Positions 22,906-33,811 of a stretch of 39,819 bases of DNA are shown one piece after another (within the stretch, counting starts at the first letter, position 1; each line of letters opens with the position of its first letter). Source of the DNA: an uncultured Phycisphaerae bacterium (GTDB lineage: Bacteria > Planctomycetota > Phycisphaerae > Sedimentisphaerales > Anaerobacaceae). Both the position numbers and the translations under genes were made by a program. Below the pieces are notes generated by a model. That model saw only the letters and a program-made list of their open reading frames with translations, was not told the origin of the DNA and searched no databases. The stretch covers positions 1-39,819 of the forward strand of contig CBFDDG010000001.1 in assembly GCA_965603505.1 (NCBI GenBank), written 5' to 3'.

Positions 22906-23316
22906 TCAGCAGGCCGCCACGTCCTGGAACCGGGCGCCGAAGTGCGTCCCACCTTCGAGAACGGTGTGAATCGCCGCGATCAGCTCGTCGAAGTCACAAT
23001 CCTTCAACAAGTAGGCGCGGGCCCCGGCTTTGTACATCTCCCGGGCGTACCGCCGGGACGTATGCATGGACAGTCCGATGATTCTGATATCGGGATTCTC
23101 ACTGTGGATTTGCCGGGTGGCCTCGATGCCGTTGAGCCCGGGCATGCTGATATCCATGATGACGACATCGGGGGCCAGTTCCCGCGCGAGTTCCAGCGCT
23201 TCGTAGCCGGCTTTCGCCTGGCCCACAACCTCCATACCCTCCTGCTCCTGAAGGAACCTGCTCAGACCCTGAAGCACGATCGTGTGGTCGTCCGCCACAA
23301 GGATGCGAATACTCAT
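22906..23316 (-). CDS. stand-alone response-regulator receiver (REC) domain, NarL/FixJ-like, no output domain
   Basis: The track ORF is 22906..23364. From the ATG at 23316 the product reads MSIRILVADDHTIVLQGL...PDVVIMDISMPGLNG...IIGLSMH...AYLLKD. This gives the acidic pocket DD, the phospho-acceptor D in VIMDISMP, and the conserved S and K. AAGGAGGT lies at 23326-23333 upstream. The protein stops about 15 aa after the REC domain and has no LuxR-type HTH. Confidence 0.85.
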   Translation of the reverse strand: MSIRILVADDHTIVLQGLSRFLQEQEGMEVVGQAKAGYEALELARELAPDVVIMDISMPGLNGIEATRQIHSENPDIRIIGLSMHTSRRYAREMYKAGARAYLLKDCDFDELIAAIHTVLEGGTHFGARFQDVAAC

Positions 23317-23422
23317 CGGACTCAGACCTCCTTGTCTGCTCTTGAGTTCCTCAATCCGGCTCATCGCCGAAGCCCGGAGGCACTATTTGCGTCCCTTCCG
23401 TGCTCCGGTCCTCGACGAGTCA

Positions 23423-23747: not shown

Positions 23748-24617
23748 CTACATGTTGGGATCATTTCCACTCGCGTTGGGGTCGGCATCCGGATCAGGGG
23801 CATCCTGCCCTATCGACAGTGCGAGGACCGGCGCTCGCTCGAAAGCGCCCGAAGTGTATAGATCGACACCCCCTGCGTACAGGTACGAGGCAACGGCGAT
23901 GAGTTTGCCACAGGCGTCCAAGTCACCGGAGTCAATCGCTTCTTGCCTCTCGTCGAGACATGGACACTCCCAGACGCCCCGCCCATCACACCGCCTATTA
24001 TCACATCCAGCAATAATGCCGTCACCGCGACATTTCGGACAGTCTATAGAGTTGTCCGAGGTCGGGGGGCGATTTCCACGAGATTCCGAGCGTCTCACCC
24101 TGCCGTAGCCGCCACAGTAGGGGCAGACCATTATACCCAGGCCCCGACAGGTGTCACAGCAAACGAACCCGGTGTTGTCACAATCTCGACAACTGGGCGA
24201 CCGTCCCTTGGCTCGGCACTCCCTCCAGATTCGGCTGGGCATATTCGCGTCCCCGACAACCATCTCCGCCAGTTCCCGGACGTACGCAGACCTTGCCGGC
24301 TCCCGGAGCAGCTTGGCGGCTGCTTCAAATTGGCCCTTCACGCACTGGTCCAAGCCTCTGACAAGCTTATCGAGCAAGTCGCGATGCTCTTCCCTCACCT
24401 GGTTTCTGCGATTCTTCAACTCCAGGATTTTCCCTGTGTTGTTAGGATGCAGGCAATTGGGGTCGCTCAGAATCTCGTTAGCCAGAGCCTCGAACTTCTC
24501 AAGAAGATTTGGGTCCGAAGCAGTCGTGGATGGCCCACCCAGAAGGCGGGTTAAGCACACGACGACCAAAAGGCAAAACAGGCGATTCCTATTTGCGATT
24601 GATTCGTAGGCTCTCAA
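23748..24617 (-). CDS. signal-anchored protein with DnaJ-type cysteine-rich zinc-finger (CxxCxGxG) repeats
   Basis: 289-aa ORF starting at a TTG, with a GGAGG (24626-24630) 8 nt upstream. It has an N-terminal hydrophobic anchor (LFCLLVVVCLTRLLGG). Repeats at aa 143-220 are CRDCDNTG, CDTCRGLG, CPYCGGYG, CPKCRGDG and CDNRRCDGRG. Confidence 0.7.
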   Translation of the reverse strand: MRAYESIANRNRLFCLLVVVCLTRLLGGPSTTASDPNLLEKFEALANEILSDPNCLHPNNTGKILELKNRRNQVREEHRDLLDKLVRGLDQCVKGQFEAAAKLLREPARSAYVRELAEMVVGDANMPSRIWRECRAKGRSPSCRDCDNTGFVCCDTCRGLGIMVCPYCGGYGRVRRSESRGNRPPTSDNSIDCPKCRGDGIIAGCDNRRCDGRGVWECPCLDERQEAIDSGDLDACGKLIAVASYLYAGGVDLYTSGAFERAPVLALSIGQDAPDPDADPNASGNDPNM

Positions 24618-24638: not shown

Positions 24639-26969
24639 TTAGGGGACAGAACTCGCCAAATGCAGTTCCAAAAACCTGTCCCAAAGCACGAAGCAATAGT
24701 AGCTGCTTTCTCGAAACTGCTCCATCACGCTCCCGGCATCGCGTACGGCCTCAGTCCGTTCGTGCAGAATGTCCTGGACTTCCGTTTGCACGGTGCCCCC
24801 CGTGAAGGAGTGACGAATAAGAAGACCAAGAAGATCTGTAATAACATCCATCTCGACCACGATCTCCTGCAGAATCGTGACAGAAGCACTCCTGCGGATC
24901 TCTCCCTGTCGCACGGCTGCGCTGGCCTCGATATCGTTCGGGCTCTTCTTCAGGATTCGTGCCCTCAACCTCTCCCGCACATCATTTTGCAAGGACAAGA
25001 GCAGGTCCCCTGTGACCGTGCCTGGCTCCGTCAACTCGATCTTTGGCGAACCCCGGAGTCTTTCTAAGAAAGCCTCCAAATCGTTCACCTCATCCTGGGC
25101 AAGCACCGCCCCCATCTGTTTCGCAAAGTACCCCACCACGGCCAGGAGCTTGACGAAGTCCGGATCGGGTTGCCACGAGGGGGTGGGGGTGGGGGTAATC
25201 CTCTGGGGCGAGCGAGAACGTGATCGTCTTGTTCGCCCCGGCGATCCGCCCCAACTCGGAACATGGTCTTCCCACCACTCGGCGCACTCTTTGCGTTCCC
25301 AGCCATCACTCGTCGGCGTCAGCCTCCCTCGGTCCTCCACGCGGCCCATCCGCTTACTGATGAGAGCCTGTACGATCAAGTAGGCCGTGATCGGACCGCT
25401 CTCTTCGATCATCTTGATGAGCTTTTCGGGAATATCAGGATCATGCATTTGGGTGAGCGCGTGGACAAAACGTGCCGCCTGCTTCGTCTGTGTGACCCTT
25501 CCACGCATGCCAGCCGAGATTCTTACTGTACTAAGTCTATTGAGCAATTCCTGCGCCGCCTCCGGGGTATCCAACTCGACGAGCTCGATGATGCTGAAAT
25601 CCGAGGGCTTCTTCGATTCTTCTTCCGGATTCATGCCCTGGACGTTCACCGTCCAATCTCCGAGGTTGACGTTCGCCGTCAACGTGGTCCGCCGTTCCGT
25701 GGGCGTGAGTGTGAGCGCCGACTCAAACTGAGCATCGGATGGAGGAGATTCTGCCAGAAACTGAATGGCCCGGACGCAGCAAAGGGACATCGTAAACGCC
25801 ACATCCGCGAGGATCTCCTCGTGCATGAACGTCCGAGTAAAGCTCGCTTTCAGCTCGGTCGGCCTGACGACTGGGACTGGGACATTGGGCTCGTTCGGCT
25901 CCGGGCTTTTCGCCATCTGTGGCCCGCCAGGCTGAATGTCACCTTGTGGGGCGTCGTTCGGCTCCGGCGCGGCCTCTCTCGGACCGGAAGCCTCGGCCTG
26001 GATACTGGACCGGTCGTCTAGTGGCGGTGTCACCGCCACAGGCGGTCTGGAACGCCCATAAAACAGCCAAACCAGAAGGACAAAGAACCCGATCGCAACA
26101 ACAGGAATCGCCACCATTGCGATCCTCCGCAGTGAGCCAAGTCCTGATACCACAGTGAGATCTTCATCCGAGGCCGGGACATCCGACCAGGATTCATCCG
26201 GTGAGGGCCCGGCCAACAGAGCAGACTCCGGCTCCTCGATGGGCTCTGCCAATTTGTAGGGCCCCGAATCGTCGCCCTCTTGGGGCTCAGATGGCGCGGA
26301 TCCCCCTCTCTTCTCGAGGATGCGGTCAAAGATCTTGCCTGCTTGGGAGGTGGAGATGCCGAGCGTATGAGCCATCCCCATGGTCCACTCTTTGGCGTCT
26401 GCGGTTGCCACATGCCCCCGGATGGCAAGATCCACGAATTTGGCGAAGTACTTGATGACTTCCTCCGAGGGTCTCGATGTGGGCTTGGCCGGTGCAGGAA
26501 TCTTATCCAGGAATTCCTCCACCTCTCTGTCCTTCACTCCGAGCTCACGGAGAGCGGCTGCGAGAAGTGGGCGGTTGGCATCGCTCAAGGTCTTGTCCGG
26601 GTTGAGGTGCTTGTCGACTTCCTCACGAATCCTCTGCACCAGTGTACGACGGGCCTTCTCTTTCTTCTCCTGACGTTTCTGCGCCTCGGCTTTCTGCTCC
26701 AGGTGCTGGTCATACTTCCTCTTCCTGGCGGGATCGCGCAGCACGGCCGCCGCATGATCCAGCTTGTGCCTCTCGAAGCGCAGAATCATGGGGATGAATT
26801 CGGGACTGGGAATGCTCTGTCTCAGCCGAATTCTCTGCTGGTTGCGGTGCTCGTCGACGAGCTCGGGAGTGCAGGACTCTGGATCGATGTCGAGCAACTG
26901 GTAGTAGGTCGGCTTGATCGCGTCGTCCGGAACACCCAACGCCCTATAGAAAAACGTCCACTCAATCAT
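24639..26969 (-). CDS. membrane protein with N-terminal J-like domain lacking HPD, central TM helix, Pro-rich spacer and ~400-aa extracytoplasmic domain
   Basis: 776-aa ORF starting at an ATG. Residues 21-90 read TYYQLLDIDPESCTPELV...RLRQSIPSPE...AAAVLRDPARKRKYDQHL, which follows the J-domain helix pattern (YY.LL...  ...VL.DP.KR..YD), but the HPD position reads QSIPS. The TM helix is IAMVAIPVVAIGFFVLLVWLFYG (aa 283-305). Residues 308-370 are Pro-rich (PEPNDAPQ...SPEPNEPNVPVPVV). Confidence 0.65.
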   Translation of the reverse strand: MIEWTFFYRALGVPDDAIKPTYYQLLDIDPESCTPELVDEHRNQQRIRLRQSIPSPEFIPMILRFERHKLDHAAAVLRDPARKRKYDQHLEQKAEAQKRQEKKEKARRTLVQRIREEVDKHLNPDKTLSDANRPLLAAALRELGVKDREVEEFLDKIPAPAKPTSRPSEEVIKYFAKFVDLAIRGHVATADAKEWTMGMAHTLGISTSQAGKIFDRILEKRGGSAPSEPQEGDDSGPYKLAEPIEEPESALLAGPSPDESWSDVPASDEDLTVVSGLGSLRRIAMVAIPVVAIGFFVLLVWLFYGRSRPPVAVTPPLDDRSSIQAEASGPREAAPEPNDAPQGDIQPGGPQMAKSPEPNEPNVPVPVVRPTELKASFTRTFMHEEILADVAFTMSLCCVRAIQFLAESPPSDAQFESALTLTPTERRTTLTANVNLGDWTVNVQGMNPEEESKKPSDFSIIELVELDTPEAAQELLNRLSTVRISAGMRGRVTQTKQAARFVHALTQMHDPDIPEKLIKMIEESGPITAYLIVQALISKRMGRVEDRGRLTPTSDGWERKECAEWWEDHVPSWGGSPGRTRRSRSRSPQRITPTPTPSWQPDPDFVKLLAVVGYFAKQMGAVLAQDEVNDLEAFLERLRGSPKIELTEPGTVTGDLLLSLQNDVRERLRARILKKSPNDIEASAAVRQGEIRRSASVTILQEIVVEMDVITDLLGLLIRHSFTGGTVQTEVQDILHERTEAVRDAGSVMEQFRESSYYCFVLWDRFLELHLASSVP

Positions 26970-26984: not shown

Positions 26985-29432
26985 TCATGAGCCCCCACTC
27001 GGATTCGCTTTCGAGCATTCGTTCTCAAGGGCCTCGAACTTCGAGGTCCACTGCCCAAGGTCCATCCCTTCAGACTCTAATCGAAAATAGGCCATGCGCT
27101 TGCCCGCCTCTTCGCTCTGTCCCATCCGAAGCTGGCACAGAATGCAATGGTAGCTGGCCTCCAGCCATCCCGGCGTCCTCGTCCCCATTCGCGCATACAA
27201 GGTCTGCCACCAGAGCAGAGCCATGTCATACTTGCCACTGTGCTCGTGGGCCATGGCCAGGCCGCGTATGGCCGTCCCGGCGTGTTCGGGCGAATTGTCT
27301 ATGACGTGAGTATAGGACTTAGCCGCCTCTTCATAACGTCCGAGTCGCACCAACGTGTCCGCCAGGTGAAGACGAAGGACGGCATTTCGCTTGCTCTGAC
27401 CGGCCTGACCCAACAACGACTCGAATACCCTGGCTATCTGCCGGTTGATGCGCTCGGCCTCTGCGTTCTCGCCCCGCCCCGCCAAGTCGGTGGCCTGTTC
27501 TTCGAGCTCGCCGACAATCCTGAGACATGCCTCGGCTACGTGTTTCGCGGCCATTTGCTCCGGCGAGAGCGAGGCAATCAGCGTCACGACAGTATCCACG
27601 TCCCCTGCCCGGATCTTGGCCTCAAGGCGCAGAGCCAGCAACTGGCCCTCGCCATCTGTGATCTGCGGAATTCCTCGGATCGCATCAAGAAGCCGTATGG
27701 CGAGATTTGGGTGCGGCGGGTCGAGCTTCAGCAACTGCGCCGCCACGGCGGCCGTGAGACTCGTGATGTTCGTGGTTGATGGGGCCCCCTCCTCGGACAG
27801 ACTGGCTGCAGCGCCATCAGCAAAGCGTATCAAGGCGGCGGCACTTTCCGCCAGCCATTCCCTCTTGCGGCCGCTCCCGGACGCTCGTATATTCATGGCC
27901 TGCTTGCAGAGAACGCCGGCTAAGTAGTATTGGGCCACACAATAAGTTGGAGAATCCGAAGAGATGGTGCGCAGGATCTTCTCCGCATCACGGAGCCGTC
28001 CCTTTCCGATCAATACTTCCGCTGCGCGGCGTCGCGCCTCCGGCACATCGGCAACGGCAGGGAACTGCTTCTCTGCAAAACCCAGATTCTCAAGCAGTTG
28101 CGATACCGTGATCGGCGGATCGGAACCGAGAGCATTGAGCCCGCAGCGAACCGCCCTGCTGCATACCTCCTCAGCGCGTGGGTCCCCGGCGTACTGCTTG
28201 AGAAACTCGATGGCTGCCACGTGTGCATCTCGCCAGCGGTTCAGGTTCCAGAGCGCGGCGAACCTGACGTATTGAAGTTCTGCACGTGTATCCTCTGCGA
28301 TTGCTGCATCGGGTGGGGCTTTCAACCCGGCTTCCGCTTCAGCGACCGCTGCCTCATAGTCCTTGGCCGCAAAGGATTCCCTCGCTTTGTGCAGGTGCCC
28401 TACACCGGTGCTCAGCTTGGAGCCGCCCAACGCTCTGGCAAGTCTGCTGCGCCACGGCTCGCCGGCGGCACGCACGAGTTCGCACGCCCTCGTGAAAGAA
28501 GCGGGTGTGGACTCCCGACCCTGTCCCTGGTCAAGACTCGCCGTGATGTCCGCCACGCTGACGGCCCACGCAATCGCCATATCGAGTTCCGCGTCGTCAA
28601 GCGACTCCTTCTCGCCGAGGTTGCCGAAGTACTCAGAAGCGAAGCGATCCGCACCAAACGGGTCCGACGCTGCCAGACTCGCACGGATGCGGAGCCGTGT
28701 GATCTGCTTGTACAGGTGTGCCGGTATGCCCTGCCTCTTGACCCTATCTGAATCCAGCTTCGAAATCAGCCGGTTGAAGTCATCGTACGCACCCATGCGG
28801 TACAAACAGAGCCCATGTCCATAGAATGCCTCCGCGACCGTAGGATGAGCACGATAGCCCTGCGATGTCAGATCGTGGAATTTCTCGGCCGCGCCCTTCA
28901 GGAATTCGCGTCTGTCGGATGAGCTGTCCGTGGCAATGGCCAGGTAGTATTGAGTCCACGCCATCTCATAACGGACCCTGCCCATGTTGATGTTGAGCGT
29001 TCGGTACTCCGGGTTATTCTTACGTTGCCGATTGTTGAGATTCTCCGCCATCCTCTGAGCCTGCGCATCCCACCGGCTGTACAGTCCGTCATAGCGGCTC
29101 AGGAGTCCCTGGAGTATTCTGTACGCATCATGCCGCCAGGCGGTCTGCTGTCTGTCTTTCTGCCAGAATTTCAGGCAGATCGCCGCCCGCTCCCGGTCGA
29201 TTCGTCCCCCCAGGAAGTGACGTTCATTCTCATCCATGGTCTGCTGTCTCTGCAGAAGACGCTGGGCCCGATCGATTCTCTCATCCGCGTCGGCCTTCTT
29301 CAGCGCCATCTGCGCCTCAGACAGGAGGTTCTCGATCTCCTCCTGTATGGTCGCTCCAAAAGCCCCTTGGCCCACAGCGAGCGCCAGCAGCACGCAGATA
29401 GACAGGTTCAGCGACCGGACAGCAGACTTCAT
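26985..29432 (-). CDS. large secreted tetratricopeptide-repeat (TPR) protein
   Basis: The track ORF is 26985..29486. The ATG at 29432 gives a classic signal peptide (MKSAVRSLNLSICVLLALAVGQGAFG) and overlaps the upstream exbD stop as ATGA (29429-29432). The whole protein is helical-repeat rich, with A/L/Y/W spacing typical of TPR (for example YHCILCQLRMGQSEEA and GRYEEAAKSYTHVI). Confidence 0.8.
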   Translation of the reverse strand: MKSAVRSLNLSICVLLALAVGQGAFGATIQEEIENLLSEAQMALKKADADERIDRAQRLLQRQQTMDENERHFLGGRIDRERAAICLKFWQKDRQQTAWRHDAYRILQGLLSRYDGLYSRWDAQAQRMAENLNNRQRKNNPEYRTLNINMGRVRYEMAWTQYYLAIATDSSSDRREFLKGAAEKFHDLTSQGYRAHPTVAEAFYGHGLCLYRMGAYDDFNRLISKLDSDRVKRQGIPAHLYKQITRLRIRASLAASDPFGADRFASEYFGNLGEKESLDDAELDMAIAWAVSVADITASLDQGQGRESTPASFTRACELVRAAGEPWRSRLARALGGSKLSTGVGHLHKARESFAAKDYEAAVAEAEAGLKAPPDAAIAEDTRAELQYVRFAALWNLNRWRDAHVAAIEFLKQYAGDPRAEEVCSRAVRCGLNALGSDPPITVSQLLENLGFAEKQFPAVADVPEARRRAAEVLIGKGRLRDAEKILRTISSDSPTYCVAQYYLAGVLCKQAMNIRASGSGRKREWLAESAAALIRFADGAAASLSEEGAPSTTNITSLTAAVAAQLLKLDPPHPNLAIRLLDAIRGIPQITDGEGQLLALRLEAKIRAGDVDTVVTLIASLSPEQMAAKHVAEACLRIVGELEEQATDLAGRGENAEAERINRQIARVFESLLGQAGQSKRNAVLRLHLADTLVRLGRYEEAAKSYTHVIDNSPEHAGTAIRGLAMAHEHSGKYDMALLWWQTLYARMGTRTPGWLEASYHCILCQLRMGQSEEAGKRMAYFRLESEGMDLGQWTSKFEALENECSKANPSGGS

Positions 29433-29860
29433 GGTTTGACCTCTCTCGGCGAAAAGGCGACACGCCGCATCCCGGCGCGATGACATACGTCCAGCGCCGC
29501 GACCATGTAACGGAAGGGAACCCCGGCCTGCCCTTCAATAACCACCGGCCGGTCCTCCAACGCCGCCCTTCTCTGCAATTCCGCCTCGAGCGACGGGAAG
29601 TCCGCGATCCGTTTCTCATCGCACGTGATCAGCACACCGGCCGTGACGCCAAGAAGCCTGATTCGCACCGGTCGTTCCGGTACTGCCCCTTGTCCGGTGC
29701 CCGTCCCCAAACGCGACAGTTGACTCGATATGTCATTTTCCGGTTGATTGAGAGACGACGTGCACATGAAGAAGATGAGCAGGAGGAACACCACATCCAC
29801 CATGGATGCCATGTTCAATTGCGGAACCGCCAGAACGCTTTTCTGTCTTGTCAGTCGCAT
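29429..29860 (-). CDS. exbD: biopolymer transport protein ExbD/TolR family (second copy)
   Basis: 143-aa ORF. The N-terminal NMASMVDVVFLLLIFFM is the single TM helix carrying the conserved Asp. The periplasmic domain ...VRIRLLG...VLITCDEK...VVIEGQAGVPFRYMVAALDVC fits the family. Confidence 0.85.
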   Translation of the reverse strand: MRLTRQKSVLAVPQLNMASMVDVVFLLLIFFMCTSSLNQPENDISSQLSRLGTGTGQGAVPERPVRIRLLGVTAGVLITCDEKRIADFPSLEAELQRRAALEDRPVVIEGQAGVPFRYMVAALDVCHRAGMRRVAFSPREVKP

Positions 29861-29872
29861 AACGCCCGGTCC

Positions 29873-30310
29873 TCAGAGATCAGATGGCTTCTGCCCCGGC
29901 TCAATCACCGCCACATCAACCTGACCAATGCCACAGTCCGTACAGACGTTCATCAGCTCGCGGATCTTCTCCCACGATGCCTCCCGATCCCCGCGGATCA
30001 ATATGGATATAGGTCCTGAGTCCTCACGACCGGTCTCATCCACGAGAAGCTGGCGAATCGAAGTGAGCGAGTGTGTCTGCCCGGCGATTGCGACCCGACC
30101 GTCCCTGTGAACATTCACAATCAGGCGGCCGCCCGCCAACGGATCGGCCTTCTTGCCTTCCTGGGCCTCCGGCAGCTCCAACGGTTCGACCTGGATCCGC
30201 GCAATGTGGGATACGGTCAAAAAGAAGATAATCAGCAGGAATACGACATCGATCAAAGGCGCGATGTTGATCTCACATCCATACTCGCGTTTGGCCTTGT
30301 GTAACTGCAC
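29873..30310 (-). CDS. exbD: biopolymer transport protein ExbD/TolR family (first copy)
   Basis: 145-aa ORF starting at a GTG. INIAPLIDVVFLLIIFFL is the TM helix with the conserved Asp. LIVNVHRDGRVAIAGQ...ILIRGDREASWEKIRELMNVC fits the family. Confidence 0.85.
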   Translation of the reverse strand: MQLHKAKREYGCEINIAPLIDVVFLLIIFFLTVSHIARIQVEPLELPEAQEGKKADPLAGGRLIVNVHRDGRVAIAGQTHSLTSIRQLLVDETGREDSGPISILIRGDREASWEKIRELMNVCTDCGIGQVDVAVIEPGQKPSDL

Positions 30311-30336: not shown

Positions 30337-31101
30337 CTACACGGCCTTGCGGAATCGACCCATCAATTTCTCCACGACCGTCTCCGCCTCGGCCACCAGG
30401 CTATCAATCCGCCGACGGAAGAAGGCCACAAAGAACATCGTCGGGATCGCGACAATCAGCCCCAGGCACGTGGTCACCAGGGCTTCCGAGATCCCTCCGG
30501 CCAATTGCGACGGTCTGGCCGCTCCTTCAGTCTGTGCAATCTCGTTGAATGACCTGATCATCCCGGTGACGGTCCCCAGCAGCCCAAGCATCGGCGAAGT
30601 CGACGCAATGAACGCAAGGTACTCCAGCTTGCGGTGCAGCTTGGAGATCTCGCGCTCACTGACCTCCTGCATCGCATTCTGCATATCGTAGAAGCCGAAC
30701 ATGGCGCCGACCTGGCCCAACCCGGCCCCGACGACCGCGGCAAGGAAGGAGTCATTCTCCGCACAGGCCTGCCGGGCTTCCACGTACTTCTTGCCCTCGA
30801 TATGCTGACCGAGCTCGTGCGCCAGATCGCCCGGAACGATCCGGTTCCGGCGAACAAGCAGAAAGTTCTGCACGATCAGTGCGACCGCCACGAGAGACAC
30901 CAGGATGATCAGGTAGCCGATGATTCCACCTTTGGCAATGGTGCTCCAGAGAGAGATCGACTGTGGCTCGGCGGTCACAGCGGGCTCCAGCTCCGACGGC
31001 TGCGCAATGGCGCCGCACGTCCAGAGTCCCCAGAACACAAGCAGTACGATCAGGATTGCCAGCCACCTGCCAACCACACGCACGTTCGATCTGTCAAGCA
31101 T
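30337..31101 (-). CDS. exbB: MotA/TolQ/ExbB proton-channel family protein
   Basis: 254-aa ORF with an N-terminal signal-like segment. The core is ...LAFIASTSPMLGLLGTVTGMIRSF...GGISEALVTTCLGLIVAIPTMFFVAFF, the conserved TM2/TM3 of ExbB/TolQ. Confidence 0.88.
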   Translation of the reverse strand: MLDRSNVRVVGRWLAILIVLLVFWGLWTCGAIAQPSELEPAVTAEPQSISLWSTIAKGGIIGYLIILVSLVAVALIVQNFLLVRRNRIVPGDLAHELGQHIEGKKYVEARQACAENDSFLAAVVGAGLGQVGAMFGFYDMQNAMQEVSEREISKLHRKLEYLAFIASTSPMLGLLGTVTGMIRSFNEIAQTEGAARPSQLAGGISEALVTTCLGLIVAIPTMFFVAFFRRRIDSLVAEAETVVEKLMGRFRKAV

Positions 31102-31163: not shown

Positions 31164-32387
31164 CTACGGCCTGGATAACTGGGTACAGAATCTATAGCTT
31201 CCATCGTTCTCTCTGGCGATCCTCTTGAGTACGAACTCGCCTCGGTTGTCGTGAAAAGCGATCGTATTGACAGCGGTTTGGAGCACGTCCCTGGCCTTGG
31301 GATTCGCCTGGCGTATCGCCCCACACACTTCGTCGTCGGAGATAAAGGTACGCGGGCTTGCGGTGAATACGCCGTCGGTAAGCAGGTAAATCACGTCGGG
31401 CCTAAGCGAAAGGGCTTTTCGCAGCGCCGGGATGGGATTGGTCCATCCCGTCGGTTGAATTCTGTCTTGAGCCCACGCCAAGAAACGGTCCTTGTTGCCC
31501 GGCGTTGCCGTCACCGACCCGCTGGCTTCCATAGGGGTTGCGTCTGTACTGTAGAAAATGATGTAGAATTTCTGGTTCGGCGTCAGCCGACGAACTGACT
31601 CCTGCAACTCCCACTTGGCATCGTCTAATCGACCGTCCTGACTCATGCTCTCTGAACGGTCGATCACGTACACAACCGCCTCGCCTGTATCCGAGATGCC
31701 GCCGAACAACAATCCGTCCCCTGACCCGGCGCTACCGCCAGGCAGAAACACATCCATGCCCGAGCCAATTGCACCGCCCCCGCCGGAAGGCACGTCAATG
31801 ATTATGGGCTCGGAGCCTCCAGACGGCTCCCCACCACCCAAATCGGCGATTGGATCGTACGAAGCGAGTTCCGCTGAGTCGGGGAGCGAGGGTTCATAGG
31901 AGGGCAGATCCGGGGCCTCGAGGCTCGTGTCGCTGAATTCGATCGTGTCCACGTCTTCCAGCAGTAATCCGGCTTCCCGGGCGTGACTGCCCGAACCCAA
32001 CCCGGGCCACCATGTGATCCCCGTGAAACCAATCAGAAGCACGGCATGGATCAGGACGGATGAGCCCCATCCTACCATGGAAGAGACCCAGTCCATCCGC
32101 TTGGGCTCCCCCGTCGGCATCTCCGCGGCATCCACCAACACCAGAGGATTACGACAGTTCGGACAAGAGACGGTCTTGCCGGAATGTTGAGCTTTGAATC
32201 GGATCTTCCGTCCGCATCCGGGGCAAAGGCAAATGGCGCGGGCTTCCCCATCCCCGTTGGGTGTCACATGGGGACCGCGACCGGATTTCATGTCCTGGGC
32301 ACACACGATCCGCGCTCTCTTTCTCCCCCCGAGAACCGGAACAACAACTCCTGTGGCGGCCGGATGTGCTACTTCCGACCACGTCAA
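31164..32387 (-). CDS. zinc-ribbon / TonB-like SxxxH signal-anchor / von Willebrand factor A (VWA) domain protein
   Basis: 407-aa ORF. The 32387 start is a TTG, and an ATG alternative at 32291 gives MKSGRG... A CxxC...CxxC ribbon (CPGCGRKIRF...CPNCRNP) spans 32154-32231. The TM helix at 32007-32090 contains SVLIH. A Gly/Asp/Pro-rich linker follows. The VWA domain has a DxSxS MIDAS motif (VVYVIDRSESMS) and later LLTDG. Confidence 0.75.
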   Translation of the reverse strand: MTWSEVAHPAATGVVVPVLGGRKRARIVCAQDMKSGRGPHVTPNGDGEARAICLCPGCGRKIRFKAQHSGKTVSCPNCRNPLVLVDAAEMPTGEPKRMDWVSSMVGWGSSVLIHAVLLIGFTGITWWPGLGSGSHAREAGLLLEDVDTIEFSDTSLEAPDLPSYEPSLPDSAELASYDPIADLGGGEPSGGSEPIIIDVPSGGGGAIGSGMDVFLPGGSAGSGDGLLFGGISDTGEAVVYVIDRSESMSQDGRLDDAKWELQESVRRLTPNQKFYIIFYSTDATPMEASGSVTATPGNKDRFLAWAQDRIQPTGWTNPIPALRKALSLRPDVIYLLTDGVFTASPRTFISDDEVCGAIRQANPKARDVLQTAVNTIAFHDNRGEFVLKRIARENDGSYRFCTQLSRP

Positions 32388-32755: not shown

Positions 32756-33811
32756 TCAGATCCTCCGCCCGCTGCCTGCGAGTTGCTCGGCGACTCGCGA
32801 GTAGACCTCGTCCAGCGTGATGTGTTCGATGGCGTGCGCGGGGTCGCGGCTCTTGATGGCGAGGCCTCGGCTCGATGCATCCCGCGCGACAACACACTCC
32901 GGGCGACCGTAGGGACCGACCCGGAACGGATTCGACCAACTGAACATCATGACGAGCGGTCGGCCAAGGGCAGCGGCGATGTGGCCGGGCCCCGTGTCGT
33001 TGCACACCACGAGACTTGCGCGTCGAAGCACCTCCGTCAACTCCGACAGCGAGGTCCGGCCGGCAAGATTCGCGATGGGATGCCGCGCCAGGCTTTGTAT
33101 CCGCTCGATCATCGCGCCTTCGGACTTGCTGCCGGTGGCTGCGACGGCCAAGCCGTGCTCCGAGGCAAGGCGGTCGGCCAGCGAGGCGAATCGATCGGCG
33201 GGCCAGCATTTGCTGACCTGGGCCGAGCCCGGGACAATCACAGCGTAACGCTCAACACCGACGTTGTGATGGGTCAACAGGTCGCGTGCCGCGACGGCGG
33301 CTTCAGGCCTCTCAGGCAAAACGAATTCCACGCTGAGATCGGATGCGCCGATCGTGTCGACGAGCTTGAGATAGTAGTCGACGACATGGACCCACTCCAT
33401 CCGCGCCGGAATCGTTTTCGTGTAAAAATGGTGAGCGAACTCGCGGCCCCAAACCGGCCCGACGCGGTGCTTGCAGCCGGAAAGCCACGCCAGCGAGGCC
33501 GTGCGGAAGAGCCCTTGCAGGTCGATCACGGCATCGAACCGGTCGTGACGCAGCCGAGAGATCAAAGACAGCAGTTCGCGAAATGCGGCCGGATGACGCC
33601 ATGCCTTGCCAAGGAACTTGCGATCGAAGAGGATGATTTCATCGAGGTGCGGGTGGCCCTCGATCAACGACGCAAAGGCCGGACGGATCAGCCAGCTTAT
33701 CCGCGCCTGCGGAAGACTCCTGCGCAGCGCCGACAACGCCGGCAGCGCCAGCACGATATCGCCCAACGAACTGGGCTTGATCAGCAGGATGTTCTGGTAC
33801 GCGTTCGACAT
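32756..33811 (-). CDS. glycosyltransferase family 9 (ADP-heptose:LPS heptosyltransferase-like)
   Basis: 351-aa ORF starting at an ATG. The N-terminal ILLIKPSSLGDIVLALPALSALRR...ISWLIRP and the C-terminal ...VCNDTGPGHIAAALGRPLVMMF are GT9 hallmarks. Confidence 0.88.
   Translation of the reverse strand: MSNAYQNILLIKPSSLGDIVLALPALSALRRSLPQARISWLIRPAFASLIEGHPHLDEIILFDRKFLGKAWRHPAAFRELLSLISRLRHDRFDAVIDLQGLFRTASLAWLSGCKHRVGPVWGREFAHHFYTKTIPARMEWVHVVDYYLKLVDTIGASDLSVEFVLPERPEAAVAARDLLTHHNVGVERYAVIVPGSAQVSKCWPADRFASLADRLASEHGLAVAATGSKSEGAMIERIQSLARHPIANLAGRTSLSELTEVLRRASLVVCNDTGPGHIAAALGRPLVMMFSWSNPFRVGPYGRPECVVARDASSRGLAIKSRDPAHAIEHITLDEVYSRVAEQLAGSGRRI

Follow-up and report, generated by a model that had tools for sequence, protein, structure and literature searches.

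The window analyzed here is a 39,819-nt stretch of DNA from an uncultured Phycisphaerae bacterium (GenBank assembly GCA_965603505.1, contig CBFDDG010000001.1). It encodes a membrane-anchored VWA-domain protein whose gene stands first in a tight, same-strand cluster of the order VWA, exbB, exbD, exbD, TPR and a gene for a 776-aa protein. The VWA protein is probably a periplasmic force transducer anchored in the inner membrane, laid out like TonB/TolA but with the VWA domain as its working end (rough probability 0.7). Its parts follow one another as a C4 zinc ribbon, a single transmembrane (TM) helix with a Ser-x3-His motif, an acidic linker and the VWA domain. By the features compared with the published description, it is a member of the “vWA force transducers”, a class that is itself computational and whose prototypes are in Tichowtungia aerotolerans (Williams-Jones et al. 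2025, Mol Biol Evol 42:msaf138, PMC12204202).

Architecture of the VWA Protein

An earlier note on this DNA placed the gene in an open reading frame (ORF) at 31164..32387 on the minus strand, and translation of the window returns that frame, with 407 codons from a TTG. The likely product is a 375-aa protein that begins at the ATG at 32291 (MKSGRG...); this start is favored over the TTG at 32387 because two homologues (P0003 and P0006) begin at the aligned position. Residues can thus be numbered in a 407-codon scheme, from the TTG of the maximal ORF, or in a 375-aa scheme, from the ATG; the former is marked below as 407 numbering. The gene and the parts of its product are as follows.

31164..32291, minus strand: VWA force-transducer-like gene, 375 aa (ORF list, translation, aligned homologue starts, Pfam VWA_3 at 3.4e-9)
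32139..32240, minus strand: N-terminal C4 zinc ribbon, predicted cytoplasmic (CPGC and CPNC, AlphaFold2 strands, conservation in homologues)
32007..32090, minus strand: single TM helix with Ser-x3-His (sequence, AlphaFold2 helix 67-94, conservation)
31680..32006, minus strand: acidic Gly/Ser/Pro-rich linker of 109 aa, predicted periplasmic (composition, model confidence below 50)
31188..31679, minus strand: C-terminal VWA domain with a complete metal-ion-dependent adhesion site (MIDAS) (Pfam, AlphaFold2, Foldseek, invariant residues)

A full-length AlphaFold2 model, built with 26 homologues, reproduces these parts in sequence order: a four-stranded ribbon (residues 18-51), a helix (67-94), a disordered stretch (99-194) and an alpha/beta domain (205-370). 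The last is modeled with a predicted local distance difference test (pLDDT) score above 90, and Foldseek matched it to solved VWA domains with E-values down to 6.5e-13, including those of ITIH1, calcium-channel alpha2-delta, the anthrax toxin receptors and Bacteroides BatB (structures 3ibs and 4jdu). Pfam likewise recognizes VWA_3 (3.4e-9), VWA_2 and VWA at aa 237-400 (407 numbering). The intact DxSxS motif described in the earlier note is indeed present, as DRSES at aa 243-247 (407 numbering; nt 31647-31661), and the MIDAS is completed by a conserved Thr/Ser and by the TD of LLTDG.

Ahead of this domain, the linker (aa 128-236, 407 numbering) is acidic and Gly/Pro-rich, as had been described, with 21% Gly, 14% Ser, 10% Asp, 9% Pro and 8% Glu; its residues 99-194 have pLDDT below 50 and are taken as disordered. 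The median linker length across the family is 110 aa. Most family members carry in this region a short hydrophobic strand of the form xEQ(I/V)(I/V)(I/V)P(D/S)A, which the family profile places at His+23 to His+29. By analogy, this “IIIPDA”-type strand is a plausible equivalent of the motor box, the ExbD-binding element known for TonB and TolA (PMC12204202). The family xEQIIIPDA stretch also resembles the ISVTMVTPAD that follows the TM helix of E. coli TonB.

The Ser-x3-His Anchor

The TM segment, WVSSMVGWGSSVLIHAVLLIGFTGITWW, lies where the earlier note had located it (nt 32007-32090; aa 100-127, 407 numbering), and so do Ser110 and His114 within SVLIH (Ser codon at 32058-32060, His codon at 32046-32048), which become S78 and H82 in the 375-aa scheme. 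No Asp occurs in the helix. The anchor of E. coli K-12 TonB that had been set beside it, LLSVCIHGAVVAGLL, reads as quoted on NC_000913.3.

The Ser and the His are conserved as strongly as the metal site. An alignment of 26 sequences at 24-77% identity (A1) holds only ten invariant columns, two of which are the TM Ser and His and four the MIDAS-region residues D211, S215, T305 and D306. A profile search over 1.84 billion cluster representatives gave a family of 5473 representatives at a threshold of E<=1e-30, and S-x3-H stands at the start of the hydrophobic helix in 125 of the 144 new top profile matches. It is likewise present in 65 of 76 genome loci in which the N-terminus is present, and conservation among homologues, on which the earlier claim depended, is thus seen in all three samples. 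Such a motif is not due to chance, because S...H occurs in only 22 of 1232 hydrophobic segments (1.8%) in other ORFs of related loci vs 87 of 102 family ORFs (85%), a frequency about 50 times background. The family logo reads P(-8) W/F(-7) x x S(-4) x x x H(0) x G(+2). When a profile of the family TM region (A2) was used, it aligned the E. coli TonB and TolA anchors with their Ser and His in register; none of the other window ORFs matched the family anchor profile.

Linkage to an ExbB-ExbD Motor

The earlier note had the gene directly 5' of exbB, and exbB does start 62 nt downstream on the same strand. The remaining genes of the cluster follow closely.

30337..31101, minus strand: ExbB/TolQ-type motor subunit (Pfam MotA_ExbB, PF01618, 3.2e-32; 62 nt after the VWA gene)
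29873..30310, minus strand: ExbD/TolR paralogue 1, with a TM Asp in IAPLIDVVF (Pfam ExbD, 8.9e-21; gap of 26 nt)
29429..29860, minus strand: ExbD/TolR paralogue 2, with a TM Asp in MASMVDVVF (Pfam ExbD, 8.1e-20; gap of 12 nt)
26985..29432, minus strand: large TPR protein of about 815 aa, predicted secreted (Pfam TPR, signal-peptide-like N-terminus)
24639..26969, minus strand: protein of 776 aa with one TM segment (no Pfam match; gap of 15 nt)

This association holds well beyond the window. Eighty independent loci were drawn from GTDB species genomes, nearly all of them Planctomycetota, and 60 had enough flanking DNA for the exbB neighborhood to be evaluated; exbB was found within 4 kb of the VWA gene in 48 of these, downstream on the same strand in 41, and two exbD genes were present in 36. 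Six of seven hand-picked distant homologues were also linked, with exbB-exbD-exbD alongside, and in five of those six a TPR gene encoding 900-1100 aa comes next. The two samples together bear out the motor linkage that had been predicted for homologues. In each of the six linked loci with inspected annotation (L087 included), the second exbD is followed by a large TPR gene, and relatives at 77% identity have an identical six-gene order. Linked-motor homologues are also found in the named strains Planctomicrobium sp. SH664 (L033) and Thalassoglobus neptunius KOR42 (L035).

The motor itself cannot be assigned to Ton or Tol, because every score lies well below its curated (equivalog) cutoff. Among NCBIfam models, the ExbB protein matched tolQ best (1.7e-26, vs 6.3e-17 for exbB), and both ExbD paralogues matched tolR best.

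N-Terminal Modules and Probable Topology

The N-terminal ribbon was described earlier as CxxC-N19-CxxC. Two Cys pairs do lie upstream of the helix, and translation sets their spacer at 16 rather than 19 residues: the ligands are C55-x2-C58-x16-C75-x2-C78 (CPGC-x16-CPNC; nt 32154-32225, 407 numbering), and position 32231 belongs to an extra Cys53 outside the four-Cys set. The AlphaFold2 model forms four short beta strands here (residues 18-51, pLDDT about 86-93). Two homologues (P0003 and P0006) conserve the ribbon, and five others (P0018, P0019, P0025, P0028 and P0033) have a CxxC...CxxC equivalent to it. Pfam matches to many ribbon families were all sub-threshold, the best being LysW-like at 0.0097, and a search of PDB sequences with the ribbon matched neither GltJ nor ZitP.

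An N-side zinc ribbon is found in 51 of the 144 top profile matches, about a third. Among top family representatives, the number of residues ahead of the Ser has a median of 61 and a minimum of 9, and most members lack a cytoplasmic domain. Two relatives, P0016 (L005, 8001-9758) and P0116, carry instead an N-terminal adenylate/guanylate cyclase domain fused to the SxxxH helix, linker and VWA domain; the domain is a class III nucleotide cyclase by PF00211 (1e-8, above cutoff). The P0016 gene lies directly upstream of exbB-exbD-exbD-TPR and is itself preceded by a second VWA transducer gene.

Because the cyclase domain of these relatives must face the cytoplasm, the VWA domain should be on the periplasmic side. 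As judged from sequence, then, the VWA domain is probably periplasmic and the N-terminus cytoplasmic. The N-side ribbon and cyclase domains, together with the net charges of the window protein (+5 for the N-terminal tail, -19 for the linker), favor the extracytoplasmic VWA domain that the earlier note had required, with a weaker signal from the residues that flank the helix, as taken up below. The N-terminal zinc ribbon and cyclase modules are an addition to the vWA force-transducer class: the paper in which the class was defined has 0 occurrences of the word zinc in its main text (PMC12204202).

Comparison with Known Transducers

The vWA force transducers are described as having the SHLS motif in their TM helix, then a domain II of about 100 disordered or proline-rich residues, in which a predicted beta strand shortly after the helix is the motor box, and a vWA domain at the C-terminus; they were reported in Planctomycetes, Verrucomicrobia and other phyla of the Planctomycetes-Verrucomicrobia-Chlamydiae group, as well as in other phyla (PMC12204202). 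In synteny with their genes are a tolQ-like gene, a pair of distinct tolR-like genes and a TPR gene that is uncharacterized, and in AlphaFold3 models the conserved His comes to lie where TonB and TolA bind the motor (PMC12204202). The paper's conclusion for the class is thus the same as the one drawn here for the window protein. The window protein shares with them the single TM helix with Ser and His, a disordered linker of about 100 residues and the C-terminal vWA fold, and the window cluster has the same tolQ-like, two tolR-like and TPR synteny. Tandem transducer pairs occur both in the published set and in the relatives surveyed here. Gene order is a point of difference: the paper text places vWA genes downstream of TPR/tolQ/tolR, whereas the order here is VWA, exbB, exbD, exbD, TPR.

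The same paper sets apart a trans-pore helix family (TPH-vWA) that has no Ser/His, carries an ExbD-like pore helix with an Asp and lacks an adjacent tolR/exbD (PMC12204202). Its members resemble the window protein as membrane-tethered vWA proteins encoded next to a TolQ-like gene; unlike them, the window protein has the Ser/His, no TM Asp and two adjacent exbD genes.

TonB of E. coli (b1252) has the same type II, single-pass S-x3-H anchor (LLSVCIHGAVV vs GSSVLIHAVLL in the window protein), a flexible periplasm-spanning linker and a genetic association with ExbB/ExbD. Unlike TonB, the window protein has no TonB_C domain (PF03544), its C-terminal half being VWA alone by Pfam, NCBIfam and fold search, and it therefore lacks the means to pair with TonB boxes by beta strand. 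Its linker differs as well, being acidic and rich in Gly and Ser rather than Pro-Glu/Pro-Lys, and TonB has no counterpart of the 66-residue cytoplasmic zinc-ribbon tail.

The TolA anchor of E. coli (b0739), IIISAVLHVILF, contains the same Ser/His motif. The window cluster further resembles tol-pal in its TPR gene, which recalls cpoB, and in motor genes that score slightly better as TolQ/TolR. Unlike Tol-Pal, it has two exbD/tolR paralogues instead of one; no TolA domain III, tolB, pal or ybgC was found in the cluster or in Pfam scans of the window's large ORFs (nor any TonB_C or MoxR/DUF58 domain in those scans), and the linker is not helical in the AlphaFold2 model, unlike that of TolA. The earlier description of the protein as a TonB analogue is supported, and checks of all three refuting conditions named with it, on SxxxH conservation, motor linkage and topology, gave no refutation. 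The TonB/TolA-type anchor, the linker and the motor linkage agree with it; TonB is no better supported than TolA as the model, since the motif is common to both. The comparison supports a protein that works like TonB/TolA yet sits in neither family, and that belongs to the vWA-transducer class.

Proposed Mechanism

If the protein is such a transducer, the Ser/His face of its TM helix would dock against the outer side of an ExbB pentamer, as happens with TonB and TolA. An ExbD1/ExbD2 heteromeric pair in the pore would carry the essential Asp, and the motor, driven by proton flow, would pull on the linker. The VWA head could then grip a partner, with an acidic partner residue coordinated at the MIDAS metal, and pass on force or movement; candidate partners are an outer-membrane protein and the TPR protein encoded in the same cluster. 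The zinc ribbon would probably serve as a handle by which a cytoplasmic protein localizes or gates the transducer. As far as sequence goes, the output could be Ton-like (import), Tol-like (envelope maintenance) or adhesion-related.

Several observations weigh against this reading. Of the four SHLS positions, the Ser and His alone are conserved in the family (His+7 is G, L or M, and His+11 is V, T or A), and the window protein has F and T at the L and S positions. The A2 profile found no match among PDB chains at E<=10, and it scores TonB at 6.4 bits and TolA at 5.1 bits, which rank 19 and 30 of 1137 hydrophobic segments. Because these profile scores are not significant, the likeness to TonB/TolA is taken as one of motif level, and homology of the anchors is not demonstrated by sequence; for an anchor of 25 residues, homology lies beyond the reach of the profile method. 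The candidate motor box is also atypical: the subfamily of the window protein (P0001, P0003, P0005 and P0006) has WWPGLGSGSHAREAGLLLED in place of the “IIIPDA” box. The window protein itself has a short hydrophobic GLLLED near that position, where AlphaFold2 shows no strand in the isolated chain. The positive-inside bias is weak as well. Across 155 family members, the TM flanks average 1.89 Lys plus Arg on the N side vs 1.44 on the other, and the N side is higher in 68, lower in 55 and equal in 32; since this bias is not decisive, the case for topology rests on the N-terminal domains. Linkage, too, is incomplete, with no exbB within 4 kb in 11 of 54 evaluable SxxxH loci and likewise at the locus of P0007. 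Finally, the vWA transducers as a class had neither a known function nor a reported deletion phenotype in 2025 (PMC12204202).

If the reading is right, the VWA domain would be a third type of head, one that uses a metal-ion grip instead of beta-strand pairing, and it would widen the repertoire of the 5:2 motors. To our knowledge, TonB and TolA were long the sole carriers known to bring inner-membrane proton-motive energy to the outer membrane. The VWA family is large and is conserved throughout Planctomycetota, where no pal has been detected (PMC12204202 supplement). The vWA-transducer class was already known from 2025, computationally only, and the window adds a complete six-gene example; what is new is the set of conservation and linkage figures for Planctomycetota, along with a cytoplasmic ribbon in about a third of top members and a cyclase in a few. 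After the 2025 paper, a specialist would not be surprised by the transducer itself. The cytoplasmic modules are a fresh lead, and the ribbon, absent from the main text of the class-defining paper, is a possible regulatory handle. A literature search on Planctomycetes, TonB-dependent transport and crateriform structures found nothing.

Alternative Explanations

The alternative that survives best differs over output and leaves the coupling mechanism as it is. It is possible, though rather doubtful, that the cluster is a Tol-like envelope-maintenance system in a phylum without Pal, in which the transducer acts as TolA, the motor is TolQR-like, and the TPR protein is CpoB-like or a scaffold in outer-membrane tethering or constriction. 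The motor scores lean that way, with ExbB best against tolQ and both ExbD proteins best against tolR, although none reaches an equivalog cutoff. TolA shares the Ser/His motif with TonB, and the TPR gene belongs to the conserved core. Its product has a weak YbgF/CpoB match (2.2e-5, below cutoff), but it is three to four times the length of CpoB and matches through generic TPR repeats only. The report that no pal is found in Planctomycetes (PMC12204202 supplement) is taken in its favor; the window's lack of tolB, pal and ybgC counts against a system of the Tol kind.

The zinc ribbon raises a different comparison, to the Agl-Glt gliding machinery of Myxococcus. In that machinery, which a TolQR-type motor drives, the ribbon of GltJ precedes one TM segment and a domain outside the cytoplasm, and the periplasmic head is TonB_C-like rather than VWA. 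As the nearest precedent for the ribbon, GltJ shares with the window protein an N-terminal cytoplasmic C4 zinc ribbon; it differs in its GYF domain and in a cytoplasmic region of 377 residues. In M. xanthus, that ribbon (C5, C8, C28 and C31) regulates focal-adhesion turnover through MglB (PMC11135422), a gliding-related role has been proposed for the vWA class (PMC12204202), and the MIDAS of the window protein's head is intact. A surface-adhesion or gliding machine, with a TolQR-like motor, a ribbon regulated from inside and adhesion through the VWA domain as its output, is nonetheless unlikely. The ribbon has no detectable sequence similarity to any solved zinc ribbon, GltJ included, and the PDB sequence search did not match ZitP of Caulobacter either. 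No GYF domain or MglA/MglB-type GTPase appeared in Pfam scans of the window's large ORFs, with no specific search made for Glt proteins. With only about 110 linker residues between it and the inner membrane, the VWA domain would be periplasmic, not surface-exposed, and two thirds of family members have no ribbon at all.

The VWA fold invites comparison with BatA/BatB of Bacteroides, which are likewise membrane-anchored bacterial VWA proteins. In Bat operons, the genes that accompany those for VWA proteins encode a MoxR ATPase and DUF58 instead of ExbB/ExbD. A BatA/BatB assignment as such was ruled out on operon context, as neither MoxR nor DUF58 was found when the large ORFs of the window and the related loci with annotation were examined. 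A passive periplasmic scaffold of BatA/BatB type that merely shares an operon with the motor, its Ser/His kept for oligomerization or folding, is in turn improbable. The BatB-type structures 3ibs and 4jdu among the Foldseek matches, the about 20% of family loci (and P0007) without an adjacent motor, and the lack of significant anchor similarity to TonB/TolA all fit a scaffold. Against it stand the linkage to exbB and two exbD genes and an invariant TM His four residues after an invariant Ser, which is the TonB/TolA motif at about 50 times background. Motorless loci are also less telling than they seem, as TonB paralogues unlinked to exbBD are common in other bacteria.

A zinc-binding anti-sigma factor also combines a cytoplasmic zinc module, a single TM segment and a periplasmic domain; that candidate was ruled out here, with no sigma gene and no zinc-binding anti-sigma (ZAS) motif. 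A membrane-spanning signaling protein, anti-sigma-like or sensory, in which a periplasmic VWA domain senses a ligand and the ribbon relays the signal, is very unlikely in spite of the class III cyclase that replaces the ribbon in two relatives (P0016 and P0116) and of a response regulator gene (22906-23364) about 1.3 kb past the cluster, as no extracytoplasmic function sigma gene is adjacent, the ribbon is CxxC...CxxC rather than the ZAS HxxxCxxC (zf-HC2 is not among the matches listed), most members have no cytoplasmic domain, and the motor linkage and Ser/His motif would be left unexplained.

Other Genes of the Cluster and Its Surroundings

The TPR gene likely starts at 29432 (MKSAVRS), where its ATG overlaps the exbD2 stop as ATGA; the maximal ORF extends to 29486. 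Its orthologue in L087 encodes 813 aa and has a 4-nt overlap. Orthologues of the 776-aa protein occur in the same position only in the close relatives L087 and L088, and in such relatives this is probably the last conserved gene of the operon. Phmmer searches with the 833-aa TPR protein and the 776-aa protein against ORFs of 86 loci returned no orthologues, and the TPR partner of distant loci is recognizable by position, size and weak TPR matches alone. The N-terminus of the 776-aa protein is J-domain-like without HPD (YYQLLDIDPESCTPELVDEHRNQ...VLRDPARKRKYDQHL); one TM segment follows near residue 300, and the C-terminal part spans about 460 aa.

A possible seventh gene of the operon is a 289-aa ORF (23748-24617, minus strand) that the 776-aa gene precedes by 21 nt. 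Its product has no Pfam match, begins like a signal peptide and contains several DnaJ-type, Cys-rich CxxCxGxG-like repeats (CRDCDNTGFVCCDTCRGLGIMVCPYCGGYG..CPKCRGDG). The response regulator gene mentioned above lies after it. On the other side, 464 nt upstream of the VWA gene, is a heptosyltransferase-family gene of glycosyltransferase family 9 (32756-33811, minus strand; 1.4e-45), which occupies the same position in L087 and L088; the 464-nt gap is a likely promoter region. The heptosyltransferase gene hints at a lipopolysaccharide-containing outer membrane, and with the RodA/FtsW, Mfd, glycoside hydrolase and beta-helix protein genes elsewhere in the window it makes up a diderm, planctomycete-like context.

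Variation within the Family

Phycisphaerae-type loci differ somewhat from the window cluster. In three of them (L003, 9043-10119; L004, 9138-10187; L006, 1346-2485), an extra secreted helical protein of about 350 aa, weakly TPR-like, is encoded between the VWA gene or genes and exbB; it is absent from the window cluster. The same loci often have two tandem VWA transducer genes, and the window cluster has one. Three loci (L018, L024 and L036) lie on contigs of metagenome-assembled genomes labeled Anaerolineales or Actinomycetes, all other matches being Planctomycetota; the labels probably reflect mis-binning, not a real occurrence in monoderms.

In related loci, proteins without a VWA domain (L075, 3064-4797; L035, 15533-16531; L071, 3680-4735) also bear a very similar S-x3-H anchor, with a linker behind it that is Gly-rich or acidic, suggesting that the anchor is a reusable module in Planctomycetota. 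The head in L075 is a squalene-hopene-cyclase-like domain (PF13243, 7.8e-10), and its gene stands about 1.1 kb after exbB-exbD-exbD. In L035 the anchor gene overlaps the end of an exbD-like gene, and in L071 it is just upstream of a VWA transducer gene; the C-terminal regions of both proteins are without assignment. It is tempting, if speculative, to extend the force-transducer reading to these proteins and to suggest that the Ser-x3-His anchor is a modular adaptor that plugs varied heads (VWA, a squalene-cyclase-like alpha/alpha toroid, and beta domains without assignment) into ExbBD motors for an outer-membrane process specific to the phylum. N-terminal modules would then make two-way devices of such proteins: cytoplasmic partners may gate or position the force, or the load on the head may be reported inward, for example as a cyclic nucleotide. 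The powered process could be one such as macromolecule uptake, replacing classical TonB- or TolA-dependent machinery.

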